Assembly: GCA_041649575.1 (NCBI GenBank)
Contig: JBAZMW010000004.1
Coordinates: 21,687-85,686 of the forward strand
DNA: 64,000 bases
Source of the DNA: Patescibacteria group bacterium
GTDB taxonomy: Bacteria > Patescibacteriota > Patescibacteriia > 2-01-FULL-39-33
Reading direction: 5' to 3'
Shown here: piece by piece, positions 6,080 through 53,810 of the stretch
Layout: each line of letters begins with the position of its first letter
Position numbering within the stretch: the first letter of the stretch is position 1
Notes under the pieces: model-generated
What the model saw: only the letters and a program-made list of their open reading frames with translations
Database searches by the model: none
What the model was told of the DNA's origin: nothing
Translations under genes and position numbers: made by a program

Positions 6080-6152
6080 GGGCCAGTAGCTCAGGGGTTA
6101 GAGCACCGCTCTTATAAAGCGGGGGTCGGTGGTTCAAATCCACCCTGGCCTA
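6080..6152 (+). tRNA. tRNA-Ile2-like with anticodon UAU (decodes AUA)
   Basis: 73-nt cloverleaf GGGCCAG/CTGGCCT; anticodon stem CCGCT/AGCGG, loop CUUAUAA; T-loop TTCAAAT; body resembles bacterial ileX but has T34 instead of C34. Confidence 0.7.
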
Positions 6153-6315
6153 CAAAAACAAATTGGAATTAAAAGTTAATTGTTTTTAAAAAAGTAAAGA
6201 CTGACATTAAAGTGGATTTGAAGGGCAGTAATGAGCCAAATCCCGCCACCGGCGGGATGAAGGCGAGACGCCCGCCAAATCCGAGCAAGCGCAGGATTTG
6301 GCGCTGCCCCGGACC

Positions 6316-6335
6316 CAAATCCACCCTGGCCTACA
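6316..6335 (+). repeat. 20-bp direct repeat of the 3' end of tRNA-Ile(UAU) (copy of 6135..6154)
   Basis: CAAATCCACCCTGGCCTACA occurs at both 6135-6154 and 6316-6335, flanking a 161-bp insert. Confidence 0.8.
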
Positions 6336-7732: not shown

Positions 7733-9331
7733 ATGAAAATTAGCGTAGAAAAAAAATTACGAAACTGGCAACTAGAGGCGCTGAAATCGCCCGAGTTTGC
7801 TTTTGTGGAAAAGTTGACAAAAAAATTCCCCGAGGCGAAAGTTTACTTGGTGGGCGGTGCCGTCAGAGACCTGATTCTAGAGCGTGATACTAAGGATTTT
7901 GATTTTGTGGTGGCCAAAGTGCCGGCCAAGGATTTGGAAAAATTCCTTAGCTCTTTGGGCAAGGTCAATCTGGTTGGCAAAAGTTTTGGAGTATTTAAGT
8001 TTGTACCTAATAACGTCATCCCGAGCGAAGCCAGGGGAGAAGTGTGGGGATCCCGCGGGATTGCCACGTCGTCCGGTTCCGTTACGCGGAACCGGTCTCC
8101 TCGCAATGACATTATTTTTGAACCCTTCGATATCGCTCTGCCGCGCACCGAGCATGCGGGCATGAGCGGCGGCTACAGGGATTTCGAAGTGCAAAGCGAC
8201 CAAGACTTGCCAATCGAGGAAGATTTGTCACGCCGCGATTTTACTATTAATGCCCTGGCCTGGGACTTGAGAGAGAAAAAAATAATTGACGAGTTTGACG
8301 GACTAAAAGATTTGGAAAATAAAACTATCAAAGCGATTGGCAAACCGGAACAGAGATTCCAGGAGGATTATACCCGCCTGCTGCGCGCTATCAGGCTCTG
8401 CTGCCAACTGGATTTTATGATCGAGGCCCACACCCTGAAAACCATTCACGACAAAGCTCAAAAAATCGGCACCATTGCCAAAGAAAGAATTAATGAAGAG
8501 CTAGTCAAAATTGTCATGTCGAACAAAGCCGAGGACGGTTTTCGATTACTGCAAAAAATCGGGCTTTTAAAAATATTAATTCCAGAACTGGAGTCGACGG
8601 TTAACATCAGCCAGAATAAACATCATATTTACGACATTTTTGAACATAGCGTACGGGCGCTGGGAGCAGGCGCTCAAAGGAATTATTCGCTTTGGGTGCG
8701 GCTGGCGGCGCTACTGCATGACATTGGCAAGCCGCAAACAAAAGAGGGCGAAGGCCCCGACTCAACTTTTTACAACCACGACATCGTTGGAGCCAAAATC
8801 GCCAAAAATATTTTAAAACGACTAGATTTTTCCAATGAGACTATTAGCAAGGTGACGCATTTAGTGCGTTATCATATGTTTTATTATGCCCTGGATACGG
8901 TGAGCGACGCCGGAGTAAGGCGACTACTAGCGCGACTGGGCAAAGAAAATATTCAAGATTTCATTGATGTCAGAATCTGCGACCGGTTGGGCATGGGCCG
9001 GCCTAAGGCCAAACCCTGGAAGCTGATTGAGCTGGAACGCCGACTCAAGGAAGTGCAGCTCGATCCCATTACTCCCAAGATGCTCAAAATCAATGGCGAT
9101 GAGCTGATGAAAATTTTGAAAATCAAGCCGGGACCGCGAGTGGGCCTGATACTTAATGCCCTGCTGGGCGAGGTTTTGGAAGATCCCGAGAAAAACGATA
9201 AAAAATATTTGACCAAAAAAATGAAAGAGTTGGATAAATCGAAAGACGAAGAATTAAAAAAACTAAATCCGGATGTAAAATTTTACGAAGAAGAAAGGAA
9301 GAGGTTGCTACATTTCAATAAAGACAACTAA
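7733..9331 (+). CDS. cca: CCA-adding tRNA nucleotidyltransferase / poly(A) polymerase family with HD domain
   Basis: GGAVRD and RRDFTINA head motifs; HD domain (LLHDIGK); 532 aa; contains an in-frame 96-bp repeat insertion. Confidence 0.8.
   Translation: MKISVEKKLRNWQLEALKSPEFAFVEKLTKKFPEAKVYLVGGAVRDLILERDTKDFDFVVAKVPAKDLEKFLSSLGKVNLVGKSFGVFKFVPNNVIPSEARGEVWGSRGIATSSGSVTRNRSPRNDIIFEPFDIALPRTEHAGMSGGYRDFEVQSDQDLPIEEDLSRRDFTINALAWDLREKKIIDEFDGLKDLENKTIKAIGKPEQRFQEDYTRLLRAIRLCCQLDFMIEAHTLKTIHDKAQKIGTIAKERINEELVKIVMSNKAEDGFRLLQKIGLLKILIPELESTVNISQNKHHIYDIFEHSVRALGAGAQRNYSLWVRLAALLHDIGKPQTKEGEGPDSTFYNHDIVGAKIAKNILKRLDFSNETISKVTHLVRYHMFYYALDTVSDAGVRRLLARLGKENIQDFIDVRICDRLGMGRPKAKPWKLIELERRLKEVQLDPITPKMLKINGDELMKILKIKPGPRVGLILNALLGEVLEDPEKNDKKYLTKKMKELDKSKDEELKKLNPDVKFYEEERKRLLHFNKDN
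8035..8130 (+). mobile_element. MITE-like palindromic element inserted in frame in cca (32 codons)
   Basis: 5' GTCATCCCGAG and 3' CTCGCAATGAC terminal inverted repeats; internal 9-bp hairpin CCGGTTCCG/CGGAACCGG; about 62% GC; the 3' half recurs at 35581-35624 and 44431-44466. Confidence 0.65.
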
Positions 9332-11905: not shown

Positions 11906-12613
11906 TTGGCACCACTTATGAAAAATTTGTCTAGTTTAGAAAAAATTCTGGGAGTGACTTTTAAAAAACAAGAATTGCTGCTCCAGGCCGTAACACATCG
12001 TTCTTATCTGAATGAACATCCAGAATTCAAGCTTGAACATAACGAAAGATTGGAATTTCTGGGCGACGCCGTTTTGGAGCTAATAGTTACAGAATATCTT
12101 TATAACAACTACCCCAACCCAGAGGGAGAGCTGACCAACTGGCGAGCCAGCCTGGTCAACCGTTCCAGCCTGGCAGAGACCGCTCAAGAATTAGCCATTG
12201 AGTCTTTTATTTCCATGAGCAAGGGCGAGAGTAAGGATAAAAATTCCAAAGCCCGGCAATATATCGTGGCCAACGCCATTGAAGCCATTATCGGCGCCGT
12301 TTATCTTGATCAAGGAATCGGCTCGGCCAAGAAATTCATCAAAAAAAACATTCTAAGCAAGCTGGAAAGAATCATAGCCAATAAGCTATACGTCGACCCC
12401 AAAAGCGATTTCCAAGAAAAGGCCCAAGACAAATTGGGTGTCACGCCGGTGTATAAAGTTTTGGAGTCGTCCGGGCCGGATCATGCTAAAACCTTCAAAG
12501 TGGGGGTATATCTGGCCAATAAAATGCTAGCAACCGGTGTTGGTTCCAGTAAGCAAGAGGCGCAAACAGCAGCGGCCAGAAACGCCTTGGCCAAAAAAGA
12601 TTGGGAAAATTAA
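11906..12613 (+). CDS. rnc: ribonuclease III
   Basis: RNase III signature NERLEFLGDAVLEL plus a C-terminal dsRBD. Confidence 0.9.
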   Translation: MAPLMKNLSSLEKILGVTFKKQELLLQAVTHRSYLNEHPEFKLEHNERLEFLGDAVLELIVTEYLYNNYPNPEGELTNWRASLVNRSSLAETAQELAIESFISMSKGESKDKNSKARQYIVANAIEAIIGAVYLDQGIGSAKKFIKKNILSKLERIIANKLYVDPKSDFQEKAQDKLGVTPVYKVLESSGPDHAKTFKVGVYLANKMLATGVGSSKQEAQTAAARNALAKKDWEN

Positions 12614-13759: not shown

Positions 13760-13785
13760 GCTCTCGTAGTGAAATGGATATCACG
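13760..13785 (+). repeat. duplicated 5' half of tRNA-Arg (acceptor + D-arm), 25/26 identical to 13812-13837
   Basis: GCTCTCGTAGTGAAATGGATATCACG matches GCCCTCGTAGTGAAATGGATATCACG. Confidence 0.75.
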
Positions 13786-13811
13786 ACAGACTCCTGCCCG
13801 CCACTGCCTAC

Positions 13812-13883
13812 GCCCTCGTAGTGAAATGGATATCACGCTTGGCTTCGGACCAAGAATTTTGGGTTCGAATCCTGACGAGGGCG
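13812..13883 (+). tRNA. tRNA-Arg (anticodon UCG)
   Basis: Acceptor GCCCTCG/CGAGGGC, D-arm GTGA-AATGGATA-TCAC, anticodon arm CTTGG-CTTCGGA-CCAAG, T-arm TTGGG-TTCGAAT-CCTGA. Confidence 0.75.
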
Positions 13884-13916
13884 TTGGCGATGGCAGGCGG
13901 GTCGGATCTGTTATTG

Positions 13917-13940
13917 GGGGTTCGAATCCTGACGAGGGCG
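13917..13940 (+). repeat. duplicated 3' portion of tRNA-Arg (T-arm + acceptor 3' strand)
   Basis: GGGTTCGAATCCTGACGAGGGCGTT is identical to 13861-13885; the intervening spacers (13786-13811 and 13884-13916) are partly reverse-complementary. Confidence 0.7.
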
Positions 13941-14061
13941 TTACCGCGTGGGATGTTAGCTTCCGCCTCGGCTCGCTTTGTTCGCCAAGGCGAGACAGGC
14001 AGCTAGGCTACGGATCAGACTGGAAGAGTATGATAAACAATTTACATAAAACGAGTAATAT

Positions 14062-21679: not shown

Positions 21680-22789
21680 CTACGCCAGGTTGATGTTGAT
21701 CTCGGCTCGTCCCAAAGCGGCCAAGGCCAGACCCAGAACGGTAGCAGCGGCATACGGCCGTTCCAAGAACACTGTGGAGCCGGAACTCATGCCGGCGAGC
21801 GGGTCAACCAGACGCACCTCCCTGCCAAACGCCCGCTGGAAGTACAGCGCGATGTTGCGTAAGCGCACGCCACCGCCTGTCAACAGGAACCGGTCCACCT
21901 CGCCGCCACCAGGCAACGAGCGGAAGTAAGCCAAGGAATCTTTGACTTCCGTGACCAGCCGGCTAAGCACCGGGCCGGTCGCTTCGCCCATCTTACCATC
22001 GCTGCTGACATCGCTGGTTGGAACGAAGCCTTGCTCGAGCTTCATGGCTTCCGCCTCCAAGAAAGGCACACCGAAAGCATTGCCGATCGCCGCGGTAACG
22101 TCGTTGCCGGCTAGGTGCAGCGGCCGCGTATAAGCGAATTGACCGCCCCTCTCTATTACCAGGTTGGTCGTGTTGGCGCCCAGGTCGAGCACGGCGACGC
22201 ACTCATCCGCGTGTCCCAATTCGCCGATATGCCTCAACCAGTCATAGAGCGCCACCGACGCGGGGATGCAGGCTATCGGATTGACCAGTTCTAGAGGCAA
22301 AGGCGCCAGGTGAGCATTCAGCGCATCTCGCTTGATAGCGGCCATCATAACCTGGTATCCCTTTTCCTTGGCGTCCGCCCCGCAGAGGAGCCCGCTCGTG
22401 TCCGTTGTGGGAAAAAGGTGATATCCCAGGCGAATCTGGTCGAGCTTGAATGGTATCTGTTGCTGAAGTTCATACCGCACGATCTTGTCGATTCTCTTCC
22501 TTGGAATCGGTGGCAGGAACCTGGTCCGAGTGAAAACCGAGCGGCCTGGCACTCCAACCACTGCTGGCTGACGCCAGAAGTGAAGACGATTGCCAATGCC
22601 CATTTCAGCCAGTAGTTCTTCCAGCGCCTGCCGCTTCTTGGCCCGCTTGTCGGCTTCATCGGCCAAGGGATCAAGTAGGTACTCCTTGAGGCCGAAACGA
22701 GACAGCCGCAGCATGGTGCCGGCACCACGCTCTAGTTCGCACACACGAACCTCGCTGGTACCGATGTCAACAGCAATCCTTCTAAACAT
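21680..22789 (-). CDS. pilM: type IV pilus assembly protein PilM (actin-like ATPase), orphan and GC-rich (about 58%)
   Basis: VDIGTSEVR N-terminus; PilM-like blocks (VGVPGRSVFTR ... IPFKLDQIRLGY ... VLDLGANTTNL ... LTGGG). Confidence 0.65.
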   Translation of the reverse strand: MFRRIAVDIGTSEVRVCELERGAGTMLRLSRFGLKEYLLDPLADEADKRAKKRQALEELLAEMGIGNRLHFWRQPAVVGVPGRSVFTRTRFLPPIPRKRIDKIVRYELQQQIPFKLDQIRLGYHLFPTTDTSGLLCGADAKEKGYQVMMAAIKRDALNAHLAPLPLELVNPIACIPASVALYDWLRHIGELGHADECVAVLDLGANTTNLVIERGGQFAYTRPLHLAGNDVTAAIGNAFGVPFLEAEAMKLEQGFVPTSDVSSDGKMGEATGPVLSRLVTEVKDSLAYFRSLPGGGEVDRFLLTGGGVRLRNIALYFQRAFGREVRLVDPLAGMSSGSTVFLERPYAAATVLGLALAALGRAEININLA

Positions 22790-24367: not shown

Positions 24368-24485
24368 AACAGATAAAAATAGTCAATTTGATTTATCTCG
24401 CTAACCCGTTTAATTCCAGTTCTTTTCTATAACAAAAATAATCACCAAAAAGGTGATTATTTTTTGCTAAGCGGGTAACGGGAAT

Positions 24486-24633
24486 TACGCGTCGCTCCCT
24501 GCCTACCGGTAGGCAGGCGCTCCTTGCCCTGGGTTGGCAGCAGACCTGCCACCGGCAGGTCTGCTGACGTTCGACCTCATCACTTCGTGATTTGTCTCAC
24601 TGCCAACCCGTTCGATTCCCGTTAATTTCTGTT
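24486..24633 (-). repeat. 148-bp GC-rich hairpin-rich insert between tRNA-Gly and a duplicated copy of its 3' end
   Basis: 17-bp direct repeats AAGCGGGTAACGGGAAT at 24469-24485 and 24634-24650; insert holds palindromes CCTGCCTACCGGTAGGCAGG, CAGCAGACCTGCC-acc-GGCAGGTCTGCTG and GGGTTGGCAG/CTGCCAACCC. Confidence 0.65.
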
Positions 24634-24634
24634 A

Positions 24635-24837: not shown

Positions 24838-24880
24838 GTCGGGGTGACAGGACTTGAACCTGCGACCTCTTACTCCTTCA
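24838..24880 (-). pseudogene. tRNA-like 3' fragment (T-arm + acceptor 3' strand), 3' half of an outer tRNA-like gene enclosing tRNA-Pro(UGG)
   Basis: Minus strand: TGAAGGAGTAAGAGGTC-GCAGGTTCAAGTCCTGT-CACCCCG-ACA; no D or anticodon arm immediately upstream. Confidence 0.55.
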
Positions 24881-24896
24881 CCCTGTTAAATAATTG

Positions 24897-24970
24897 TCGG
24901 AGTAGTGGGATTTGAACCCACGATCTCCTGCTCCCAAAGCAGGCGCGATAGCCAGCTTCGCTATACTCCG
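24897..24970 (-). tRNA. tRNA-Pro (anticodon UGG)
   Basis: Minus strand: CGGAGTA-TA-GCGAAGCTGGCTATCGC-G-CCTGC-TTTGGGA-GCAGG-AGATC-GTGGGTTCAAATCCCAC-TACTCCG-A. Confidence 0.8.
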
Positions 24971-24979
24971 GTAATTTAA

Positions 24980-25021
24980 CAGGGCGAGAAGCAAGCGCTC
25001 TAGCCAACTGAGCTACACCCC
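24980..25021 (-). pseudogene. tRNA-like 5' half (acceptor + D-arm + 5' strand of a long helix), 5' half of the outer tRNA-like gene
   Basis: Minus strand: GGGGTGT-AG-CTCAGTTGGCTAGAGC-G-CTTGCTTCTCG-CCCTG; acceptor GGGGTGT is complementary to CACCCC at 24843-24848. Confidence 0.55.
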
Positions 25022-25088
25022 GTATTAAAACAAACAATCAACAACGATGAGCGCATTGTCAATTGCAAATCGTTAACTGTTTTGAGTA

Positions 25089-25235: not shown

Positions 25236-25300
25236 CACTGTGCGCATACCTGGATTTGAAGTCTGGACCTTCCCGATATATCGGGACGCTCTAATTAAAT
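25236..25300 (-). pseudogene. partial tRNA-Ile-like copy (D-arm end, variant anticodon arm, T-arm, acceptor 3' strand)
   Basis: Minus strand: TTAGAGCG-TCCCGATATATCGGGA-AGGTC-CAGACTTCAAATCCAGG-TATGCGC-A; matches the 3' two-thirds of tRNA-Ile(GAU) except the anticodon arm. Confidence 0.55.
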
Positions 25301-25527
25301 CCTCTAGATACTTTCGCGACTTCATTCTTTTTAAACAACTCTCTCTTCTGATTGCCTCTTTTTTGTCCTCGTATTCTTCATGATAGACTAATTTTTAAGG
25401 CTTTTTATTGCTGGTGTACCGGCCTGTAGAGCTATTATGCTGGCGAATTCTCTTTTCCAAATCAGAAGAGTAACCAATATAGTAGCTACCATCTCTTTCG
25501 CTTTGCAAGATATAAAGGCAATGCATG

Positions 25528-25601
25528 TGCGCATACCTGGATTTGAACCAGGGACCTCGTCATTATCAGTGACGCGCTCTAACCAACTGAGCTATATGCG
25601 C
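25528..25601 (-). tRNA. tRNA-Ile (anticodon GAU)
   Basis: Minus strand: GCGCATA-TA-GCTCAGTTGGTTAGAGC-G-CGTCA-CTGATAA-TGACG-AGGTC-CCTGGTTCAAATCCAGG-TATGCGC-A. Confidence 0.85.
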
Positions 25602-25604
25602 TTA

Positions 25605-25731
25605 ATTTTAAACCTGGGACCTTCCCGATATATCGGGACGCTCTACCAACTTTTCAATCCCGACTTGTCGGGGGGAGCCCCGCCCGACTGAACGGCGTTC
25701 AGCCGTTCGGGCGGGTATATGCGCTTAAATT
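25605..25731 (-). pseudogene. degenerate tRNA-Ile-like copy carrying a 66-nt GC-rich palindromic insert in the D-arm
   Basis: Minus strand: GCGCATATA + CCCGCCCGAACGGCTGAACGCCGTTCAGTCGGGCGGGG... + TTGGTAGAGCG + TCCCGATATATCGGGA + AGGTCCCAGG; shares the variant anticodon arm with 25236-25300. Confidence 0.5.
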
Positions 25732-25841
25732 TACTTAAATAATATAACAAAAAAAATTGATTTTGGCAAGATGAAAAAAATAGGCCTGACGACGGCCTAC
25801 AATGCCTGTGGAGCTTCCCAAGACTGGGGCTCTGTCATGTA

Positions 25842-26234
25842 TCAGAAAGGTACTGGCTGGCACCTGGATTGTTCCAGGCCTTCTTTTAAGGCGCTGGCCA
25901 GTTCATCTCTACTACCCCAATAGCAGACCGCATCCAGCCCATTTGGCTCTGTCAATGGAGCACGAGTCACCCCAATTAAGAACGGCCTGGGCCGACAACG
26001 CCGAAAATGTTTGACAACTTCTTCCGCGCCAGGATGTTGAAAGTCGACTATCAGGATTTGCGGCCGCATTACGCCTTGTAATTCCTTGCTGTTGACGACA
26101 CTGGTGATGGTGACCTGGGGATTGCTTCCATACCAATTAACACCAAGATCGTCAATGGCCCAGTCTTTGGCGCCTCGCCAGAGCTCCAAAGCCGATTGGG
26201 TATTGACGGCCAAAAAGGTTACCAGTGTGGGCAT
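25842..26234 (-). CDS. hypothetical protein (130 aa), GC-rich, own promoter; weak paralog of the next gene
   Basis: RBS GGGAGG; promoter TTGTCA-17-TAATAA; palindrome TTAACCAAGCGGTTAA between the -10 and the RBS; shares an ILIVDF/ILFIDF block with 26378..26893. Confidence 0.45.
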   Translation of the reverse strand: MPTLVTFLAVNTQSALELWRGAKDWAIDDLGVNWYGSNPQVTITSVVNSKELQGVMRPQILIVDFQHPGAEEVVKHFRRCRPRPFLIGVTRAPLTEPNGLDAVCYWGSRDELASALKEGLEQSRCQPVPF

Positions 26235-26377
26235 GGTTAGATCCTCCCTTAAAGAACAGCTCGACCAAATTAACCGCTTGGTTAATTATTAACATGCCAT
26301 AAAAAATTTGACAAGAAAAAGCCGTGCGCGAGGCAACGGCTCAAATCGCTCCCAATCTGTCGGAAGGGAGCGGCGTA

Positions 26378-26893
26378 CTAGAAGGGAATAATGTCGCTGA
26401 TGGCGTCTTCCAATCCTTGACTGGTCCTGGCGCAGAGGTCGAATTCCTCACAAACCATCGGGTCGTTGGGATAATGATCGTGATAAGGAACGACTACAAT
26501 ATGGAGCGCCGGGTTGTTGCGCAAGAAAGGCGGCAACGCCTCATCGGCCTCTGTGTGATCGTTACAAATCACGACGATGAACGGTTCGAACTCGACTAAG
26601 CGCCAAAGCTGCGAGTCACGTATGTCAGCAAACATGACCCTAAAATCGCCGTAACGATAACGACGGGTGCCAAGCCACAGCTCTTTCATCTGCGTCGGCT
26701 CAAAATCGATGAACAGAATGCGTGTGCCGTTTCCTTCAAGCACCTCGACTTCGTACTCCATTGACTCAACTGGTGGCGGGATCAAACGCTCCTGCGGCGG
26801 TGGCGCTACTGGTTCCTCCTCCCGAGTCTCCAGCCAATCCAAAAAGTCTGCGCCACATTCTGCCAGGGTTGCCGGCGCCGTTGACATGGCCAT
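26378..26893 (-). CDS. hypothetical protein (171 aa), GC-rich
   Basis: AAGGAG RBS 8 nt upstream of ATG; lies downstream of the 16S terminator; no recognisable domain. Confidence 0.45.
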   Translation of the reverse strand: MAMSTAPATLAECGADFLDWLETREEEPVAPPPQERLIPPPVESMEYEVEVLEGNGTRILFIDFEPTQMKELWLGTRRYRYGDFRVMFADIRDSQLWRLVEFEPFIVVICNDHTEADEALPPFLRNNPALHIVVVPYHDHYPNDPMVCEEFDLCARTSQGLEDAISDIIPF

Positions 26894-26960
26894 TCTCCTT
26901 CTGTTGCATACTAAAGTGCTTTATAAAAGAATTTAAAACAAAATACCAAAAAAAGCAAAT

Positions 26961-26985
26961 ACAAAAACCCCGCCCAAAGGCGGGG
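26961..26985 (-). terminator. intrinsic terminator downstream of 16S rRNA
   Basis: Minus strand: CCCCGCC-tttg-GGCGGGGTTTTTGT. Confidence 0.6.
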
Positions 26986-27098
26986 CAGTTGTTGTGACAA
27001 CTAAAAAGCGACAAAAAGTTTGTAAGCCCTCTTCCCGCCTAATGGCGGGACGACCTATCATAGATGTGACTTTTAAAAAGTCACATCAATTTCTCCCT

Positions 27099-28577
<1,479 letters not shown>

Positions 28578-28869
28578 AAAAAATTTGCAACTAGATTACG
28601 GCCAGTTGCCAACCGTATGAAACATTGCTTCGCTAGAAAGCGAAGATGCTTTGTTCAAAGAAAAATAACTTGGGCTTACGCTTTTTGTCACTTTTTAGTT
28701 GTCAAATTGCCTTTTTCCTCCGCTTTCAAGCGGAAAGAAAAAACAGAGGGATCCGATTTGGCGAACTCTCGTTTCAGGCGAGAATTCTGTCAGATACCAC
28801 TGTTTTCCCTCAAAATCTAAATTTTAGGAATTTTTTAAGAATGTTTTGTGCTTATTAGTCTGCCCTATT

Positions 28870-31288: not shown

Positions 31289-32251
31289 CTACCCGAGGCA
31301 GAACACCGACGCCGAATAGTCGTCGCTGGCATACGACAGATAGTCGGTGTAGTCGAAGTTCGCATAGGAATCGTAGGCGAGGAAGCGGAGCGAGTAGGAC
31401 TGCCACTGAAGAGCCGGGCAGCGCACTATTGGTGTCTTGGCGTCTCGGCAGAGCTCCTTGGCATAGGCCATGTAAGCCACTGCCGTGTCCAAGCCGCCGC
31501 CCAAGAGCATCCATTCGGGAATCTGGGCGGACAGTTCATGCCCGACGAAGGTCTCGCGACAAGCGTCGACGCTGTAACCGCCGAAAGGCAGAAGCGTGAC
31601 GCCGACAACCGGTTCTTTGGCCAAGGCGGCGAGCAGACACTCGTGCCGACTGCCGGCTACGATGCTGACCTCGCCGGCCAAGTCGGTTTCACGGTAGTTC
31701 GTGAACTTCCTGCCCTCGGCCTCGAAGGCTTCCTCATAAGCGCTCCTCACCCCGTCGACAAAAAGCTTCAAGGTGGCGCCGTAGCCACCTTTGTCCTCCG
31801 GCAGAATCGTGCCCGCTGGCAGAACAGTCGGCAGCCAAATGCCTTTGACGGCATTGGCCGTGCGAGGATCGCCCGCCAGCCTGGTGATAGTGGCCTTGGC
31901 TCGTACTTCGAATTCCTCGGCCGACGGCAAGCTGAGCGCCTCGGCTTTGACTCGCAGTCCGATGGCCAGATGCCGACGGACGCGCTCGAGGATCTCGCCG
32001 TAGTTGATCGAGGGTTGGTTGACGTAATACGCGCCAGCGTCGCAGAACGCAGCTTTGAGTCCGGGAAACGGAATGAAGCGGCTGTTCTTGTCGAACAGCT
32101 TACGGACGGTCTCCTTGATCTCCGCGGTCATTTCGTGACGCAGCAGCGCCTTGACGACATTGACGCCGCCAAGCTGGTTGCCAAGCGCCACCCAGTGGGT
32201 ATGTGGCAGGTCGTCCAGTGTTTCCAGTTGATCAATGTTAAAGTCCTTCAT
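31289..32251 (-). CDS. hypothetical protein D (320 aa) of GC-rich island
   Basis: RBS AAAGGAG; strong promoter TTGACA-17-TATAAT at 32363..32335; about 60% GC; no recognisable domain. Confidence 0.5.
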   Translation of the reverse strand: MKDFNIDQLETLDDLPHTHWVALGNQLGGVNVVKALLRHEMTAEIKETVRKLFDKNSRFIPFPGLKAAFCDAGAYYVNQPSINYGEILERVRRHLAIGLRVKAEALSLPSAEEFEVRAKATITRLAGDPRTANAVKGIWLPTVLPAGTILPEDKGGYGATLKLFVDGVRSAYEEAFEAEGRKFTNYRETDLAGEVSIVAGSRHECLLAALAKEPVVGVTLLPFGGYSVDACRETFVGHELSAQIPEWMLLGGGLDTAVAYMAYAKELCRDAKTPIVRCPALQWQSYSLRFLAYDSYANFDYTDYLSYASDDYSASVFCLG

Positions 32252-32334
32252 CTTGCGCTCCTTTCAGCCCATGGCCGAAATGGCTTTTCCCCTACCCGAG
32301 GATTGGGAACAGTCCTACGCAGGACCATCAGACT

Positions 32335-32363
32335 ATTATACTAAATAAAAAATAATCTGTCAA
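32335..32363 (-). promoter_or_regulatory. consensus sigma70 promoter (TTGACA-17-TATAAT) on minus strand
   Basis: Minus strand: TTGACAgattattttttatttagTATAAT in the AT-rich spacer upstream of gene D. Confidence 0.6.
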
Positions 32364-32520
32364 TACTAACAAATTATTTAAAGTTAAATAAAAACTTCCT
32401 CATCTGTCCGGCCAAGCTTCTTGAATGAGATAGAAACTATCTCAAACAAGAAGAAGAGAGAGTTTGGCCGGACGAATGAAGAAGCTTTAAAAGTATTCCT
32501 CAAAACTTGTAAAAAAGATT

Positions 32521-32569
32521 TGCAAGTTTAGTTGGAAGGAGAAGCTGACAAACCACATCAGCTTCTCCC
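32521..32569. repeat. island repeat, short copy 3
   Basis: TGCAAGTTTAGTTGGAAGGAGAAGCTGA-caaaccaca-TCAGCTTCTCC: 11-bp perfect hairpin plus the CCAGTTGGAAGGAG-like core. Confidence 0.6.
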
Positions 32570-32593
32570 AAAACCATCTACCGATCAAGGCCG

Positions 32594-33451
32594 CTAGGCC
32601 TTGGCGATGACGGCGCGAGTTGCCTCAACCGCCGCCACGACGTCGGCCAGCATCATGCGCTGACCGCGGGGACTGCCGGCGATGCCCGCGTGCCCGCCGG
32701 CCGCCTCGCCCCAAAGCCCCTGCACGATCTCTCGTGCCGAGACTCCGGGGATCGGGTCGGCGATAGACACTGTCACCGCACCGGTGACTGTGTTGAAGGC
32801 GACAACAGCTTTCGCCAAGTCGCCTTCCGGGTCGACGTACAGATGGCTGACAAACGTGTCCGCCACCCGCACTGCCACCCCGCCGCCAGCCTCGACGAAC
32901 GATTGCGCATTCAGCGCGACCTCCGCCGAGCGGAACGCCTCGCCCGCCGCGAGAAGTTCCGGGTCGTCAGCGCAAATGCGCTCAACGACCCTGACGGCCT
33001 CCATCACCTGCTCGGTGACTTCGGCCGCGCTGCCGTCGCGCGGGGGCAGGCAGCGGTGACCGTTGCTCCACGCCCAGAAAGCGTAGAGCCGGACGATGTC
33101 GGCTGGCTCGGCGCCGGCTTGGCCTAGCTTGTGCGGACCGTTGAGGTCCACAAAAGCTGCCAGGAGCCAGAATCCCGGCGTCTCGGGCTTGCGACCGAGA
33201 ACGGCCGCACAGCCGCCGACGGAATCGAGATCAAGGTGGGAAAGTCCCACCGCCTCGACTTCACCAGCCGCGCCGTTGTCGGCGAGGCAGGGGGCGGGGT
33301 TGCCCGCCCGCGGCCCGTGATGGGCCAGGGTTGCGACGGACCCGGCGACACACTCGTCGCCGAATTCCGCCTCAACCGAAGCGGTCAGGCCGAAGGGGGC
33401 GAGGACGGCGGCCAATGCGGCCGCATGGTTTGAAATAAAAAACTTCGTCAT
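32594..33451 (-). CDS. hypothetical protein C (285 aa), about 68% GC; faint DHH/DHHA1-like motifs (HLDLDSVGG ... AAGGHAGIAGSP)
   Basis: RBS AGGAGA 7 nt upstream of ATG; longest frame in the region; the motif resemblance is weak and unverified. Confidence 0.45.
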   Translation of the reverse strand: MTKFFISNHAAALAAVLAPFGLTASVEAEFGDECVAGSVATLAHHGPRAGNPAPCLADNGAAGEVEAVGLSHLDLDSVGGCAAVLGRKPETPGFWLLAAFVDLNGPHKLGQAGAEPADIVRLYAFWAWSNGHRCLPPRDGSAAEVTEQVMEAVRVVERICADDPELLAAGEAFRSAEVALNAQSFVEAGGGVAVRVADTFVSHLYVDPEGDLAKAVVAFNTVTGAVTVSIADPIPGVSAREIVQGLWGEAAGGHAGIAGSPRGQRMMLADVVAAVEATRAVIAKA

Positions 33452-33560
33452 GGCTTATCTCCTCTCTCGGAGTTTCAGCGCGCCACGCGCTGTGCCTCTC
33501 TCTGGTTTATCAAACCCTGCAAGCGAGAGACAAACTGGCAACTCCGCGCCGACAACCGGT

Positions 33561-33724
33561 GCAGAGTTTTTTCCTCAAGCCCCGCAAACTCACATTGTTT
33601 GCGAAGCCAGTTGGAAGGAGGAGACAGAAAAACCACTCTGACTCCTCCGGATAACCTTGTTTGCGTTTGTAACGAGGCCGCCGCCTCCGATTGTTTGACC
33701 TCTAACAATCGTAAAGGAGTGTTC
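33561..33724. repeat. island repeat, long copy 1 (164 nt, multi-hairpin)
   Basis: About 96% identical to 34422-34585; contains the TGCGAAGCCAGTTGGAAGGAGGAG core plus hairpins GGAGGAGACAGA/TCTGACTCCTCC, GCAAAC/GTTTGC and CGATTGTT/AACAATCG. Confidence 0.75.
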
Positions 33725-33762
33725 AGATTAAGGCCTAACACACAAGGTCTTTCTGGCGTGAC

Positions 33763-34333
33763 CTACTCGGACAGCGTGATGATCAGGTCTTTGACCTGAT
33801 CATCACGCTCAGACCAGACGGCGTTGGCTGGCTTCTGCCACCACCGCTTCTTCGGTGCGCCCCATTCGGCGGCGCATTCAGCGAAGTGGCTGCAATCCCC
33901 CCCCGAATCCGCGCAACAGAGCGCGTAATACGCGGCTAGCGCTCGGCGTTCGGCCGCGATACCAGAGGAGGAGCAGCAGAAGGCAGCGACGTCACCCGCT
34001 ACCTTTTTCGCCCGGGCGAGTTGCTCCGGAGAACTTACATTCTCCAGATAACCGCGGGCCCACTCTTCAACATCCGCGATGTCGCACATCGCGGCATGCT
34101 GCGCTACGATCCTTCTGGAAACGCGCACAGCCCACTTATTCGCTAGCTCCTTGGCTAGCGAATAAGAGGCGAGGCAAATGATTTCGTAGCTTGAAAATTT
34201 CCACGAAATCAGAGCATCCACGTCCTCCCTCCTAAACTCATTGCCCGCCCCATACCAGCGGCGGGCCACTTCTCTTTCGCATTTAGGAAAGCTCCTGAGA
34301 GCTTCCCTCAGGGTTCTGTACCTTTTCAAGTTC
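33763..34333 (-). CDS. hypothetical protein B (190 aa) of GC-rich island
   Basis: RBS GGAAAGGAGAGAGAG-ATG; the longer upstream frame is an artefact of running into repeat copy 2. Confidence 0.5.
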
Positions 34334-34421
34334 ATCTCTCTCTCCTTTCCGGATGTGGCCGAGATGTGGCCGGTCCCCTCGGAAACTACCATATATCCAA
34401 AACTCCGCACCGACCATCGGC

Positions 34422-34585
34422 GCAGAGTTTTTTCCTCAGGCCCCGCAAACTCACATTGTTTGCGAAGCCAGTTGGAAGGAGGAGACAGAAAAACCACTCT
34501 GACTCCTCCAAATAACCTTGTTTGCGTTTGTAATGAGGCCGCCGCCTCCGACTGTTTGACCTCTAACAATCGTAAAGGAGTGTTC
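34422..34585. repeat. island repeat, long copy 2
   Basis: Near-identical to 33561-33724. Confidence 0.75.
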
Positions 34586-34717
34586 TAATTAAGCTCTTGC
34601 GAGCCGGCCTAACACACAAGGCCGTTTGCCCATGATTTTACGCGGATGGCTTCTGCCCTTGACACGGGCCAAGGACTTTACCGCAACCGCCGAAGCGGGC
34701 TGTGAGGACGCCGAAGG

Positions 34718-35206
34718 TTACTTGGCTTTCGGCATCCCCGGCAGCTCCTGGAGCTGTCGGATGAAGGGGCCGACGATGTCGGCCACCTCCGAACGGAAGC
34801 ACGTTTGTGCTTCCATCGCGCACTCGCAGTCACCAACGGCGATTGCGAATGGAGGAAGGGGAAGTTCCACCGCCTCTTCCGGCAGTGAAACTTCCACCTG
34901 CAGAGGATATTCTCCCCCACAAATGTCTTCTGCCAATACCTGAATATGATCCAGGTAACCGCCCACGCTCACGTAGCGGCGAAACTCCGCCGCCACACTC
35001 GACACGCCCACCGAATATGAAACGGCGAACGTGCCCGACCGGGAGGATAGGCTAACCTCCATCCCGGCCTTCGTAAGAATGACGTACCCGCCATCATTAC
35101 GACCCACCTTCCACCCCGCTGCTACTGCAGCGGAGATGGGAATATTCCCTTCCCGCGGCCAGTTCGACCGCAGAAAAGACTTAACCCCTTCAGAATAGAA
35201 ACTCAT
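34718..35206 (-). CDS. hypothetical protein A (162 aa) of GC-rich island
   Basis: RBS AAAGGAGATAAGTT-ATG; no recognisable domain. Confidence 0.5.
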   Translation of the reverse strand: MSFYSEGVKSFLRSNWPREGNIPISAAVAAGWKVGRNDGGYVILTKAGMEVSLSSRSGTFAVSYSVGVSSVAAEFRRYVSVGGYLDHIQVLAEDICGGEYPLQVEVSLPEEAVELPLPPFAIAVGDCECAMEAQTCFRSEVADIVGPFIRQLQELPGMPKAK

Positions 35207-51004: not shown

Positions 51005-52396
51005 ATGATTCCCCAGCAACTCTGGCAAGCAGCGCTCGGCGAGCTAGAACTTTTATTATCAAAGGCTAATTTTACCACTTGGTTTAAAAACACGGGAATC
51101 TCTTCTGTTGAAGAAAACAAGGCAGTGATTTCTGTGCCCAACAGCTTTACTAAAGAATGGCTGGAAAAAAAGTACCATCAAACTATTCTTAAGGCCCTAA
51201 AAAACGTTACCGACAATAAAATCAAAGAGGTGGTTTACAAAATCGAGGCCGTAGCCCAACAACCAAGCTTTAATTCGGCCAGCCTGCTTAATAAAAACAT
51301 TACCCCAGATAACACCCCACCAGAAGCCACCAAAGAGAGCTACTTCAGTGATAAAATCCCGGAAACAACCAATAATTTTATTCTTAATCCCCGCTATACC
51401 TTTGCCACTTTCATTGTCGGCAAAAACAACGAACTGGCCCATGCGGCTTCGCTGGCGGTCGCCAAGAACCCGGGCCACGCCTATAACCCATTGTTTATTT
51501 ATGGCGGCGTGGGTCTAGGAAAAACCCACTTACTTCAAGCTATCGGTCATAAAATTTTAAACGATAATCCTAAAACCAAAGTTTTGTATGTTTCCTGCGA
51601 GAAATTTGCCAATGATTTTATTAATGCTATCCAAAACGGCAAGGCCGAAGAATTCAAACAAAAATACCGCTCTATTGATTTGTTGTTAATCGATGATATT
51701 CAATTCATTTCTGGCAAGGAACAGACCCAGGAAGCTTTTTTTCACACCTTTAACGAACTACACCAGCAAAACAAACAGGTGGTGATCTCCTCTGACCGGC
51801 CGCCCAAGGCTATCGCCACCCTGGAACATCGCTTGGTTTCACGTTTTGAGTGGGGAATGATTGCCGACATCTCCAGCCCGGATTTAGAAACAAAAATGGC
51901 CATTATCGAGGCTAAAGCCAAGGAAAAAAATTACTCTCTGGAGCCGGCAGCCACCAACTACTTGGCCAGCGTCATTCATAATAATGTCAGGGAATTAGAA
52001 GGTGCGTTAAACCGTATTATTGCCCACAGTCAACTACAAAATAAAAAGTTAACTCTTGAGGAAATCAAACAAATAACCGACTCCATTACCACCAACTCTC
52101 AAAAAAAATCAATGACCCCTAAGTATATCATTAATACTGTCGCCGAATACTTTGATATTGAAATAGCCGACATTCTCTCACCTTGCCGCAAAAAAAGCCT
52201 CACCGAGCCAAGACAAATAATTATGTATTTGATGCGCGAGGAAATGAAAGCCTCCTATCCGACAATTGGCCAGGAGCTCGGCGGTCGCGATCATACCACA
52301 GTCATCCACGCTTACGAAAAAATTGTCAAAAATTTAAAAACCGACGACAAATTAAGGCAGGACATTAATGTTTTAAAACAAAAACTATATAGTTGA
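51005..52396 (+). CDS. dnaA: chromosomal replication initiator protein DnaA
   Basis: AAA+ Walker A GGVGLGKTHL, box VII, and a C-terminal HTH (domain IV). Confidence 0.9.
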   Translation: MIPQQLWQAALGELELLLSKANFTTWFKNTGISSVEENKAVISVPNSFTKEWLEKKYHQTILKALKNVTDNKIKEVVYKIEAVAQQPSFNSASLLNKNITPDNTPPEATKESYFSDKIPETTNNFILNPRYTFATFIVGKNNELAHAASLAVAKNPGHAYNPLFIYGGVGLGKTHLLQAIGHKILNDNPKTKVLYVSCEKFANDFINAIQNGKAEEFKQKYRSIDLLLIDDIQFISGKEQTQEAFFHTFNELHQQNKQVVISSDRPPKAIATLEHRLVSRFEWGMIADISSPDLETKMAIIEAKAKEKNYSLEPAATNYLASVIHNNVRELEGALNRIIAHSQLQNKKLTLEEIKQITDSITTNSQKKSMTPKYIINTVAEYFDIEIADILSPCRKKSLTEPRQIIMYLMREEMKASYPTIGQELGGRDHTTVIHAYEKIVKNLKTDDKLRQDINVLKQKLYS

Positions 52397-52685
52397 TAAT
52401 TTGGGTAAAAATTCTTTATAAAAAGTAACTAACTTGGTGATAGTATTGTTTTAAAAAGTTAATAAACTTTAGATAAGTTAAAATAAAACTGGAAAAATTT
52501 TTTAAAACCATTTAATAAAATTCAAGTCACTAGTTTTAAACAGTTGGTTGTAATAATTATTCAGTGTTTATACCTAAAAAATTTATTTTAAATATTAAAA
52601 AAGGTATAGTTTCATAAATTTTTAATAACTTTCCACTTTTCCCCTGTCATTAATATAATTATTAATAATTATTTTATTAAACTAT

Positions 52686-53810
52686 ATGAAAATTTCTTGT
52701 ACCCAAGAAAATTTAAATCAAGGGTTGATGGTAGTTAGCCATATTGCCAATAAAAATTCTAATTTGCCAATTTTAGCTAACATTTTAATAAAAGTAGAAG
52801 ATAAAATTTTAACTTTCTCGGCAACTAATCTAGAAATTGGCATTATAGCTCAAGTAAGGGGTAAGGTGGAAAAAGAAGGCGACTTCACAGTGGATGCTAA
52901 ATTACTAGCCGACTATATTTCTTTATTACCAAAAGAAAGGGTGGACCTGGAGTTAGTAGAAGATAATTTAAAAATAGAGTGCCAAAAACAAAAAACAAAA
53001 ATTAAAGGATTAACAGCTAGTGATTTTCCTTTAATCCCTAAAATAAACAAAGAAAACCCCTATATTATTAGTGCTAAGAGTTTTAAAGAGGCAATCAGCC
53101 AGGTGACTTTTGCTGTTTCTAATTCAGAAACTAGGCCGGAAATTTCTGGGGTGTTTATAAAATTTACTAATAATACTGCTGTTTTTGCTGCTACTGACGG
53201 CTATCGGTTGGCGGAAAAAACAATTGACCTAATTGAGGGCGGCAAAGAAGAAAAGACAATAATCGTACCAGTCAGAACCCTACAGGAGATTTCCAGGGTG
53301 TTAGGAATTTTTAAAGAGGACGTGTCCCTAAAAGAAGTGGAAAATGTGGAGATTTATATTTCTAATAACCAGATAGTGTTTACTTATAATGGGGTGGAGT
53401 TAGTCTCCCGTTTAATTGAGGGAGAATATCCTAATTATTCCCAAATCGTACCCAATAACAGTAAGACACAAATTAAAACCAATATCAATTCTTTAATTAA
53501 AGCAGTTAAAACAGCCAGTCTCTTCACTAAGAGTGGTATTTATGATATTAAATTAGAATTTAAAAAGAATAATGAAATAATCATCACCTCCTCCTCTTCT
53601 CAAACAGGGGAAAATATTTCAACCCTGGAGGCGGCTGTTAGCGGCGAAGAAAATAGTATTGTTTTAAATTATCGGTATTTTTTGGATGGTTTACAAAATA
53701 TTAATACAGAAGAAATAATTATAGAAATAAATGACAGTAACAGCCCCTGTTTAATGAAGCCATCCGGATTGAGTGATTATTTTTATATTATCATGCCAAT
53801 AAAACAGTAG
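52686..53810 (+). CDS. dnaN: DNA polymerase III beta sliding clamp
   Basis: 374 aa; N-terminus MKISCTQENLNQGLMVVSHIA; three-domain clamp pattern. Confidence 0.85.
   Translation: MKISCTQENLNQGLMVVSHIANKNSNLPILANILIKVEDKILTFSATNLEIGIIAQVRGKVEKEGDFTVDAKLLADYISLLPKERVDLELVEDNLKIECQKQKTKIKGLTASDFPLIPKINKENPYIISAKSFKEAISQVTFAVSNSETRPEISGVFIKFTNNTAVFAATDGYRLAEKTIDLIEGGKEEKTIIVPVRTLQEISRVLGIFKEDVSLKEVENVEIYISNNQIVFTYNGVELVSRLIEGEYPNYSQIVPNNSKTQIKTNINSLIKAVKTASLFTKSGIYDIKLEFKKNNEIIITSSSSQTGENISTLEAAVSGEENSIVLNYRYFLDGLQNINTEEIIIEINDSNSPCLMKPSGLSDYFYIIMPIKQ

Follow-up and report, generated by a model that had tools for sequence, protein, structure and literature searches.

A complete tRNA-Pro(UGG) gene nested within a second, interrupted tRNA-Pro(UGG) gene in a Patescibacteria genome

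A tRNA operon on contig JBAZMW010000004.1 of a Patescibacteria genome (assembly GCA_041649575.1) contains a tRNA-shaped gene that encloses a second, complete tRNA gene. We analysed a 64-kb stretch of this contig (64,000 nucleotides, positions 21,687 to 85,686), referred to here as the window, and coordinates without a further label are positions within it. The outer gene extends from 25022 to 24839 on the minus strand, and its anticodon loop, as read from the sequence, is opened after U33. Its 5′ part (24989–25022, minus strand; nucleotides (nt) 1–33, with C1 at 25022) comprises the acceptor 5′ strand, the D arm, the 5′ strand of the anticodon stem, and U32 and U33. The 3′ part (24839–24880, minus strand) begins with UG-AA-GGA and continues through the 3′ strand of the anticodon stem, the variable loop, the T arm and the acceptor 3′ strand to A73. 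The gap between the two parts measures 108 nt and consists of an 11-bp perfect inverted repeat around a complete tRNA-Pro(UGG). The left end of this cassette (24971–24988, minus strand) is made up of CTCG (24988–24985), the left arm CCCTGTTAAAT (24984–24974) and TAC (24973–24971), and the right end (24881–24895, minus strand) of AATT (24895–24892) and the right arm ATTTAACAGGG (24891–24881). Between them lies the inner tRNA-Pro(UGG), which starts at 24970, ends at 24896 or 24897 on the same strand, has no encoded CCA and was found by ARAGORN and by Rfam (69.3 bits). At the junctions, ‘CG’ separates CTTGCTTCT from CCCTGTTAAAT and ‘TGA’ separates ATTTAACAGGG from AGGAGTAAG. This minus-strand order of parts had been set out in a first-pass annotation of the DNA and required only small corrections. 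One concerns the outer acceptor, for which the proposed pairing holds and the register does not: it reads C-GGGGTG/CACCCC-G, with C1-G72, U8 and A73.

The whole 189 nt are predicted to fold as a cloverleaf within a cloverleaf (−87.2 kcal/mol, z = −6.46), and none of 200 shuffled sequences folded as well. The two arms pair over 11 of 11 bp, as do the terminal inverted repeats of a miniature inverted-repeat transposable element (MITE) or a REPIN, and their sequence occurs a single time in the window. Together with the outer anticodon stem, they are predicted to form a helix of 22 bp with one bulged A. The first-pass annotation had described a helix of roughly 20 bp capped by a whole tRNA, and the fold does place the inner cloverleaf on such a helix; the 11-bp perfect stem and the further stem given there are both present, although a few unpaired bases had been missed. 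The pairing between the leader and the trailer of the inner tRNA amounts to −36 kcal/mol, which is the strongest value among 108 tRNAs in related loci (median −9.8). ARAGORN and Rfam detect only the inner gene at this locus. When that gene is deleted in silico, ARAGORN calls the outer cloverleaf with a 35-nt ‘intron’, as a tRNA-Glu(CUC). This assignment was ruled out by C1-G72 and A73 and by the orthology of the outer gene to tRNA-Pro(UGG), described below. A misassembly, which had been named as a possible objection, is unlikely, as the repeats are far shorter than the assembler k-mer and the architecture is present in many independent assemblies.

For comparison, 57 loci from species-representative genomes were gathered via IF-2, and the relatives were labelled with L-numbers. 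The tRNA genes of these loci follow a conserved order, Ile(GAU)-Phe-Pro(UGG)-[Pro(GGG)]-Gly ... Cys-IF2 ... Lys-Arg(UCG), and relatives carry a single ordinary tRNA-Pro(UGG) at the site syntenic with the nest. This gene is uninterrupted in L002, L003, L006, L009, L012, L025 and L116, as would be the case for an empty homing site. The outer 5′ part is identical to nt 1–34 of the L002 tRNA-Pro(UGG) at 34 of 34 positions, and the outer 3′ part matches nt 37–75 of the same gene at 37 of 39 aligned nt (94.9%). With the halves joined and two extra A removed, the identity is 73/75 to L002 and 69/75 to both L003 and L006. Other tRNAs of the window are 73–84% identical to their L002 counterparts, so that the outer Pro gene is closer to L002 than these are. 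On the basis of its 73/75 identity to L002 and of the synteny, the outer gene is the resident, ancestral tRNA-Pro(UGG) of the organism, and the relatives represent the empty site.

Across the junction, relatives read CUUGC UU UGGGA GCAAG and the window reads CUUGC UU [108 nt] UG-AA-GGA GUAAG, with TGAAGGAG in the outer 3′ part where relatives have TGGGAG. The outer anticodon has therefore received a 2-nt insertion or, in an alternative parse, has lost UG, in which case the insert measures 110 nt. Under either parse, UGG is not regenerable by any cut-and-join reaction, because the outer anticodon reads UG-AA-GGA. The junctions contain neither a target duplication nor a repeat common to both, and both target halves are retained once each. 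The locus is thus a DNA-level insertion of a 108-nt promoter-less cassette between nt 33 and 34 of the resident tRNA-Pro(UGG). Two explanations had been offered in the first-pass annotation. One, an undescribed precursor designed for processing by RNase P and RNase Z, conflicts with the ordinary intact tRNA that relatives carry at the outer position and with an anticodon that cannot be restored; the inner tRNA is presumably released by RNase P and 3′ processing, as in any ordinary tRNA maturation. The other, a tRNA-carrying hairpin element that targets anticodon arms, gains support from the empty target in relatives, from a constant 109-nt unit at nt 33/34 of five tRNA-Arg genes, and from the decay of the outer genes, to which we return below.

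The inner tRNA-Pro(UGG) possesses G35, G36, A73 and C1-G72, which form the identity set for prolyl-tRNA synthetase (ProRS), and it is presumed to be the working gene. Sequence comparison assigns it to a different lineage from that of the outer gene. It matches the L002/L003/L006 type at 54–56 of 75 positions and the outer gene at 56/75, and it is closest to the Pro(UGG) of L048, a Buchananbacterium (66/75), whose Pro-Gly spacer is resembled by its trailer AATTATT. No promoter-like site was found between tRNA-Phe and the inner gene, and the cassette offers only 18 nt upstream of the tRNA. A promoter-like motif of the tRNA operon (TTGCCA-17-TATATT with TG) lies at 25741–25769 on the minus strand, and terminators flank the operon. 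The window encodes a CCA-adding enzyme (7733–9331). A phage origin of the cassette was considered and rejected: the Pro cargo and the unit of arms and cargo are both absent from IMG/VR, where the three matches are due to chance.

A second nest lies in the same window at 13760–13941 (plus strand), where sequence, fold and ARAGORN place a tRNA-Arg(UCG) within a tRNA-Arg(UCG), an architecture like that of the Pro nest, as the first-pass annotation had remarked. It consists of outer parts at 13760–13792 and 13902–13941 and a cassette at 13793–13901, which contains the inner gene at 13812–13884. The locus reads ACAGA CU [109 nt] UCGGA UCUGU and is opened at nt 33/34. Its arms, CCTGCCCGCC.../...GGCAGGCGGG, pair over ~15 bp in three segments and fold with 1x1 mismatches. 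The T stem of the outer gene has two mismatches. The outer and the inner gene share identical stretches of 23 nt at the 5′ side and 25 nt at the 3′ side, which suggests gene conversion or a recent copy.

Further tRNA-in-tRNA instances, for which a search had been proposed, were indeed found in other genomes. Metagenomes were scanned for a pattern formed by the inner Arg anticodon arm, GGCGGG and UCGGA, in this order. This returned 18 loci, 13 of which are Arg(UCG) in Arg(UCG), always with the insert at nt 33/34, between ...CU and UCGGA. Another Arg nest, beyond this set, is present in L022, and the gene is un-nested in L092-97. A unit of arms and tRNA of exactly 109 nt, 83–92% identical, occurs in five loci (the window, L100, L104, L111 and L115), the outer 3′ exons of which are only 59–85% identical to each other. 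Two types of tRNA-Arg are involved, which differ in the D arm: it is GCUCAAUGGAUAGAGC in the ‘native’ type and GUGAAAUGGAUAUCAC in ‘type 2’. The ends of the cassette, CCTGCCCGCC.../...GGCAGGCGGG, which form the foot of the arms, are invariant across the five loci, and the arm helix of the family is conserved, with some compensatory changes. Because one 109-nt unit sits in different genes at the same nucleotide, it can be regarded as a discrete insertion element. Phage tRNA-Arg genes often share the D arm of the Arg cargo, GTAGTGAAATGGATATCA (31 of 33 viral matches). Arms of the same family also enclose a tRNA-Ala(GGC) that lies in the D stem of a dead Ala(GGC) gene, and L009 contains a Phe-in-Phe nest at nt 25/26 with the arms CCCGAAACUUC/GAAGUUUCGGG. 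In all nests seen, the cargo and the target are the same isoacceptor, a correspondence that the first-pass annotation had missed, as it had the link to GIY-YIG nuclease genes described below. The idea that the 4 nt at the 5′ end of the cassette act as an anticodon-complementary guide was dropped, as CCTG also starts the Ala cassette, which is set in a D stem. In L022, the Pro arm pair recurs without cargo, as a hairpin where the IF-2 gene ends. No further Pro nest was found in the 57 genome loci, in closer relatives or in other fetched loci, apart from a fragment in L009, in which a broken Pro(UGG) 5′ half is followed by ...CUGUUAAAU, a related piece of the left arm.

The outer genes form a series of decay, from exons that are fully intact in L111, through the broken T stem of the Arg nest in the window, to heavily decayed copies. 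Nt 22–33 are missing from the outer gene in L099, L108, L109 and L110, and its whole 5′ half in L102, and the acceptor strands of the L109 outer gene do not match. Up to three extra GC-rich hairpins (CCCG...CGGG) are found in the D loop, anticodon loop and T arm of outer genes in L022 and L009; in the window, such hairpins are restricted to tRNA debris. An intact cognate copy accompanies every decayed outer gene. This agrees with a survey of 95 complete Patescibacteria genomes, in which only tRNA-Asn and tRNA-Asp were missed by standard tools (PMC13011429).

These observations bear on a reading in which the insert is removed from the RNA: the inner tRNA would be cut out by RNase P and RNase Z, the arms trimmed by a further nuclease at the base of the helix, and U33 joined to nt 34 by a ligase, so that one transcript gives rise to two tRNAs. 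Such a design would account for the flush, intron-like insertion at a fixed site of the anticodon loop, preceded by U at position −1 and ending in G, for the compensatory changes in the conserved arm helix, and for outer exons that are nearly unmutated in the Pro nest and structurally intact in some Arg nests (L111). It would not, however, account for the 2-nt insertion in the outer Pro anticodon, for the many outer genes that lack exon segments or have broken stems, or for the intact cognate copy that is always present, and it is difficult to reconcile with the survey above, in which no tRNAs other than Asn and Asp were reported as missed. The insert also contains neither a group I core nor any other known RNA family, with no Intron_gpI match in the window at the gathering score or at E ≤ 1. 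Its minimum free energy (MFE) and consensus folds show no bulge-helix-bulge (3-4-3), being a continuous helix with a 1-nt bulge (Pro) or 1x1 mismatches (Arg). Among the 58 open reading frames (ORFs) of the window, none encodes the splicing endonuclease EndA, RtcB or a ligase domain, nor a transposase, an integrase or a reverse transcriptase, and we know of no bacterial enzyme set for such tRNA splicing. We consider this reading very improbable.

A role for the outer halves and the helix as a processing scaffold, kept as an rRNA-like leader/trailer stem that RNase III would cut and that would aid release or folding of the inner tRNA, also appears improbable. The near-perfect helix of 22 bp, the conserved arms of the Arg family and the RNase III gene in the window (11906–12613) would all be compatible with a scaffold. 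Relatives, however, have a Pro(UGG) without such a stem, other nests lose their outer parts piecemeal while the inner gene persists, and the helix is already accounted for by the arms of the element. We hold, with high confidence, to the insertion of a replacement cassette that has left the outer gene as a relic.

The spacers of L099 and L113 contain ORFs of ~80 amino acids (aa) with a GIY-YIG catalytic domain (PF01541, E 1e-17 to 1e-19). In L099, a dead Lys gene is broken in the anticodon loop after ...CUCUUA and is followed by an intact GIY-YIG ORF and an intact tRNA-Lys. A pseudogene of such a nuclease, with one in-frame TAA, was located in the window by tblastn at 25302–25526 (minus strand; PF01541, E 6e-17). 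It begins at the first base after tRNA-Ile(GAU), an intact gene at 25527–25601 (minus strand; Ile(GAT) in the tRNA gene call). Both are enclosed by parts of a dead tRNA-Ile and form with them a larger nest, which shares the operon of the Pro nest and lies 330 nt upstream of it. The dead 5′ part (25606–25725, minus strand) carries three GC-rich hairpins (CCCGCCCGAAC...GTCGGGCGGG and others), and its anticodon arm is replaced by TCCCGATATATCGGGA. The dead 3′ part (25241–25294, minus strand) retains the 3′ strand of the D stem, the T arm and the acceptor 3′ end, and also contains the same mini-hairpin, so that this variant, TCCCGATATATCGGGA, is present in both fragments.

Homologues of this GIY-YIG protein are numerous in Patescibacteria (318 matches). 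In seven of eight contexts chosen purely by protein identity, the ORF lies 0–80 nt from a tRNA or transfer-messenger RNA (tmRNA) gene, far beyond chance expectation, because by our own estimate ~1% of such a genome lies within 100 nt of a tRNA gene. In L145, a Val 5′ half that ends at nt 33 is followed by the GIY-YIG ORF and an intact tRNA-Val, and in L141 a Met 5′ part, which bears a hairpin in its D loop, precedes the ORF and an intact tRNA-Met. In L140, tRNA-Gly is followed by the ORF and then by 13 nt that duplicate the Gly 3′ end. In L129 (1975–2280), 19-nt inverted repeats (CCCGCC...) bound the ORF, which lies directly 5′ of the tmRNA gene. The L129 unit thereby separates the tmRNA gene from its promoter, and 3–6 nt (GGGGAT) are duplicated; in L145 (1355–1480), three tandem 36-nt hairpin units TACCCGCCGCAATTTGGCACAAATTCTGGTGCGGTT occupy the D loop of the dead tRNA-Val 5′ half. 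The 108-nt Pro cassette contains no nuclease gene; the Ile nest has it as a pseudogene, and intact versions occur in other genomes, in the nests of Lys, Val and Met.

The explanation that we consider likely as a whole is that a resident tRNA-Pro(UGG) was interrupted by a replacement-tRNA cassette, probably of a homing type, and that the inner gene works while the outer one is a relic. Standard tRNA biology would have the operon promoter transcribe the whole Pro unit. The arms and the outer anticodon stem would form one long helix that isolates or presents the inner cloverleaf; RNase P and 3′ processing would release the inner tRNA, which the CCA-adding enzyme would complete, and the outer halves would remain as a non-decoding relic. 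As to the origin of the cassette, the sequences lead us to propose, tentatively, that it is a minimal, nuclease-less member of a nuclease-driven mobile family that replaces tRNA genes in Patescibacteria. Fuller members of the family would combine a GIY-YIG gene of ~80 aa with a replacement tRNA beside it. The nuclease would break a tRNA gene, and repair of the break would copy or capture the cassette, killing the resident gene and supplying a substitute. A full nest would arise if a whole armed cassette were captured between the two halves. Repair might also be one-sided, homologous on the tRNA side and end-joined on the other, which would yield the arrangements ‘5′ half, ORF, tRNA’ and ‘tRNA, ORF, 3′ fragment’. 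The forms of 108–109 nt would remain once the nuclease gene is lost, as usually happens to homing endonuclease genes. Because the resident copy is destroyed, the cargo would become indispensable and the cassette could not be lost, and under such a model of killing and replacement, the cargo and the target would always be the same isoacceptor.

Several points weigh against this explanation. Only a single Pro nest was found, together with the related L009 fragment, and the Pro arms are AT-rich while the Arg and Ala arms are GC-rich. The Pro cassette has no nuclease gene, and it is assigned to the GIY-YIG family on the grounds of a common architecture and of its neighbourhood. The ~80-aa GIY-YIG proteins have no DNA-binding domain. 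Type-2-in-type-2 Arg nests exist (the window, L111), so that the cargo is not obviously immune to re-invasion, and the arms of the Arg family are better conserved than the cargo tRNA, which points to recognition of the arms, a feature outside the proposed model. The outer Pro gene, moreover, is otherwise intact (73/75), which fits a recent insertion and is still compatible with a retained role.

An alternative is DNA insertion by a different engine. The arms would then be terminal inverted repeats of a MITE- or REPIN-like element, moved by a hairpin-recognising transposase (e.g. HUH/Y1 or RAYT) into single-stranded loops of folded tRNA-gene DNA, and the GIY-YIG genes would be bystanders. The match between cargo and target would reflect survivorship, since any other insertion into a single-copy tRNA gene would be lethal. 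The perfect 11-bp Pro arms fit such an element, as do the invariant arm sequence of the Arg family and the hairpins without cargo, identical or similar in their arms, that are found in D loops, anticodon loops, T arms and at one gene end. The insertions fall in unpaired regions of the cloverleaf, with neither a target-site duplication nor a common target sequence, and the left arm in L009 and L140 contains the tRNA 3′ end copied in inverted orientation. A target-site duplication and many copies per genome, by which MITEs and REPINs are usually recognised, were however not observed, the Pro arms being found once in the window. The transposase, integrase and reverse transcriptase are absent from the 58 window ORFs, and GIY-YIG is the only enzyme repeatedly linked to the nests. 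This alternative also predicts non-cognate cassettes in dead tRNA copies, which would tolerate them, and none were seen in the many such copies. We judge it unlikely.

In the window, the genes for Gly, Ile(UAU) and Ile(GAU) are followed, at a distance of 150–270 nt, by direct copies of tRNA 3′ ends, 16–21 nt in length. They fit the one-sided repair proposed above. Their att-like appearance could also point to the scar of a tyrosine integrase in a tRNA gene (attL/attR), which we weighed together with an assembly chimera. Yet no direct repeat is present at the junctions of the Pro and Arg nests, which retain both target halves exactly once, the window has no integrase, and the architecture recurs in many independent assemblies, so that a scar or chimera of this kind is extremely improbable. 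A crossover by a tyrosine or serine recombinase was ruled out, there being no common overlap or central dinucleotide at the Pro and Arg junctions.

The debris around the tRNA genes of the window has a characteristic layout. Downstream of tRNA-Gly(UCC) (24470–24634, minus strand), there is a 15-nt inverted copy of the Gly T arm (24610–24624), followed by nested GC hairpins (GGGTTGGCAG...CTGCCAACCC and CAGCAGACCTGCC/GGCAGGTCTGCTG) and by 16 nt that directly repeat the Gly 3′ end (24470–24485), ahead of the operon terminator. The region after tRNA-Ile(UAU) (6154–6334, plus strand) is laid out in a like manner, with an inverted T-arm copy (6212–6222), GC hairpins and, immediately 5′ of tRNA-Val(GAC), 19 nt that directly repeat the Ile(UAU) 3′ end (6316–6334). 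At 13955–14010 (plus strand), a 12-nt Lys-like tRNA 5′ fragment GGGATGTTAGCT is followed by an insertion that begins TCCGCCTCG..., immediately upstream of an intact tRNA-Lys(CUU); junctions of the type AGCT/TCCGCCT... are also present in two distant genomes, L004 and L017. Between genomes whose IF-2 is ~70% identical, syntenic ‘orthologous’ tRNAs are often only 70–85% identical, and some pairs (among comparisons with L002, L003, L006, L092 and others) are nearly identical, such as Gly in the window and in L092 (71/72). This patchy identity suggests, at the level of sequence, frequent replacement of tRNA genes.

A wider form of the proposal would see in these loci a selfish ‘kill-and-replace’ drive on the tRNA genes of Patescibacteria, exerted by a minimal GIY-YIG nuclease. 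The 108–109-nt cassettes (Pro, Arg, Ala and Phe) would be nuclease-less riders mobilised in trans, and much of the turnover and debris of tRNA genes would stem from the drive rather than from vertical descent. The nuclease might then recognise a structure, either that of folded tRNA-gene DNA or that of the palindromic arms. We regard this extension as possible, though less likely than not.

The window as a whole is a piece of a Patescibacteria chromosome, with a bacterial 16S rRNA, RNase Y, YmdB, TrmD, PilM/PilT and a short IF-2, the nearest named relatives of which are from Buchananbacteria and Falkowbacteria; an identical IF-2 is annotated as that of a Patescibacteria group bacterium. The contig corresponds to k141_497544 (133 kb) of ENA ERZ27247363. 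The 16S rRNA gene (27101–28583) has its own terminator (26986–26967) and is not followed by a 23S gene in the window; two ORFs without a Pfam match (26378–26893 and 25842–26234) lie between it and the tRNA operon (region 25842–28583, minus strand). A tRNA-Ile with the anticodon UAU is encoded at 6080–6153 (plus strand). This anticodon is unusual, as bacteria normally read AUA with a lysidine-modified CAU tRNA. At ~31289–35206, the G+C content rises to as much as 0.59, compared with ~0.44 elsewhere, over four consecutive minus-strand ORFs without Pfam matches, and this stretch may be acquired DNA. The dnaA and dnaN genes (51005–53810, plus strand) are separated by a very AT-rich spacer (~52400–52700), and the GC skew changes sign at 52–54 kb; this region is probably the replication origin. 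In L120 (1893–2477), and also in L116, a gene of the LigT / 2′-5′ RNA ligase family lies between tRNA-Pro(UGG) and tRNA-Gly. The presence of this RNA-end-processing gene in the tRNA cluster of relatives may be incidental.

No description of a tRNA gene nested in a cognate tRNA gene was found in the searchable literature, the coverage of which is incomplete, so that this is absence of evidence only. The nests apparently represent a recurrent and undescribed way of invading and replacing tRNA genes. If this is correct, they constitute a new answer to the problem faced by an invader of genes, in that a full spare copy of the destroyed gene is brought along, rather than self-splicing as in introns and inteins or patching of the 3′ end as in integrative islands. 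Replacement, not inheritance, would explain why ‘orthologous’ tRNAs of related Patescibacteria are in many cases no more than 75–85% identical, and it would explain the halves and hairpins that litter the tRNA loci of these streamlined genomes. A testable role would also be provided for the very abundant GIY-YIG proteins of ~80 aa. Nested and hairpin-ridden tRNA copies can mislead annotation, an example being the ARAGORN ‘tRNA-Glu(CUC) with intron’, and the 109-nt cassette would be a compact natural case of site-specific, scar-free insertion at a defined position of an RNA gene.

Among the closest known systems are the group I introns of tRNA genes, which are frequent in the same phylum and in some cases carry homing endonuclease genes. 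Like them, the cassettes are inserted precisely and without duplication at a fixed position of the anticodon loop, with a U before the insert and a G at its end (Pro ...CUU/C...G/U, Arg ...CU/C...G/U). This U/G match is not seen in the Phe and Ala nests and is probably incidental. Unlike a group I intron, which has a core and measures ~200 nt or more, the Pro insert has 108 nt, of which 74–75 nt are a canonical tRNA, and lacks a ribozyme core; a second copy of the gene, rather than splicing, restores function, and the host gene stays dead. The protein-spliced, split or permuted tRNAs of archaea and eukaryotes, and intron-borne small RNAs, differ in that here the organism is bacterial, the outer genes decay and an intact copy is always alongside. 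Some integrative elements (as reported by Williams in 2002) target tRNA genes and restore them with a carried 3′ segment. They share with the cassettes the use of a tRNA gene as a landing site and the means to keep the tRNA function, but they duplicate only the part 3′ of the crossover, are flanked by direct repeats and encode an integrase, whereas here a whole tRNA is carried between inverted repeats and the window has no integrase. Hairpin elements of 30–150 nt, such as the Rickettsia palindromic elements, REPINs and the GC clusters of yeast mitochondria, insert into genes, including RNA genes, and the related cargo-less GC hairpins that litter dead tRNA copies here resemble them. To our knowledge, no such palindromic element carries a tRNA gene or sits specifically in a cognate tRNA gene. 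SegB of phage T4 is a GIY-YIG homing endonuclease that recognises the T-loop (T-psi-C) motif of tRNA genes and spreads with neighbouring tRNA genes to genomes without it (PMC2330249), and the GIY-YIG genes described here likewise lie among tRNA genes. SegB, however, has ~220 aa with a DNA-binding part, belongs to a phage and lies between genes. The present proteins have ~80 aa with the catalytic domain only and are chromosomal in Patescibacteria, and the unit lands inside the cognate tRNA gene with a whole replacement tRNA, in the Pro cassette without the nuclease gene. By analogy, the system may work like the intronless homing of a free-standing GIY-YIG nuclease such as SegB combined with a palindromic miniature element.

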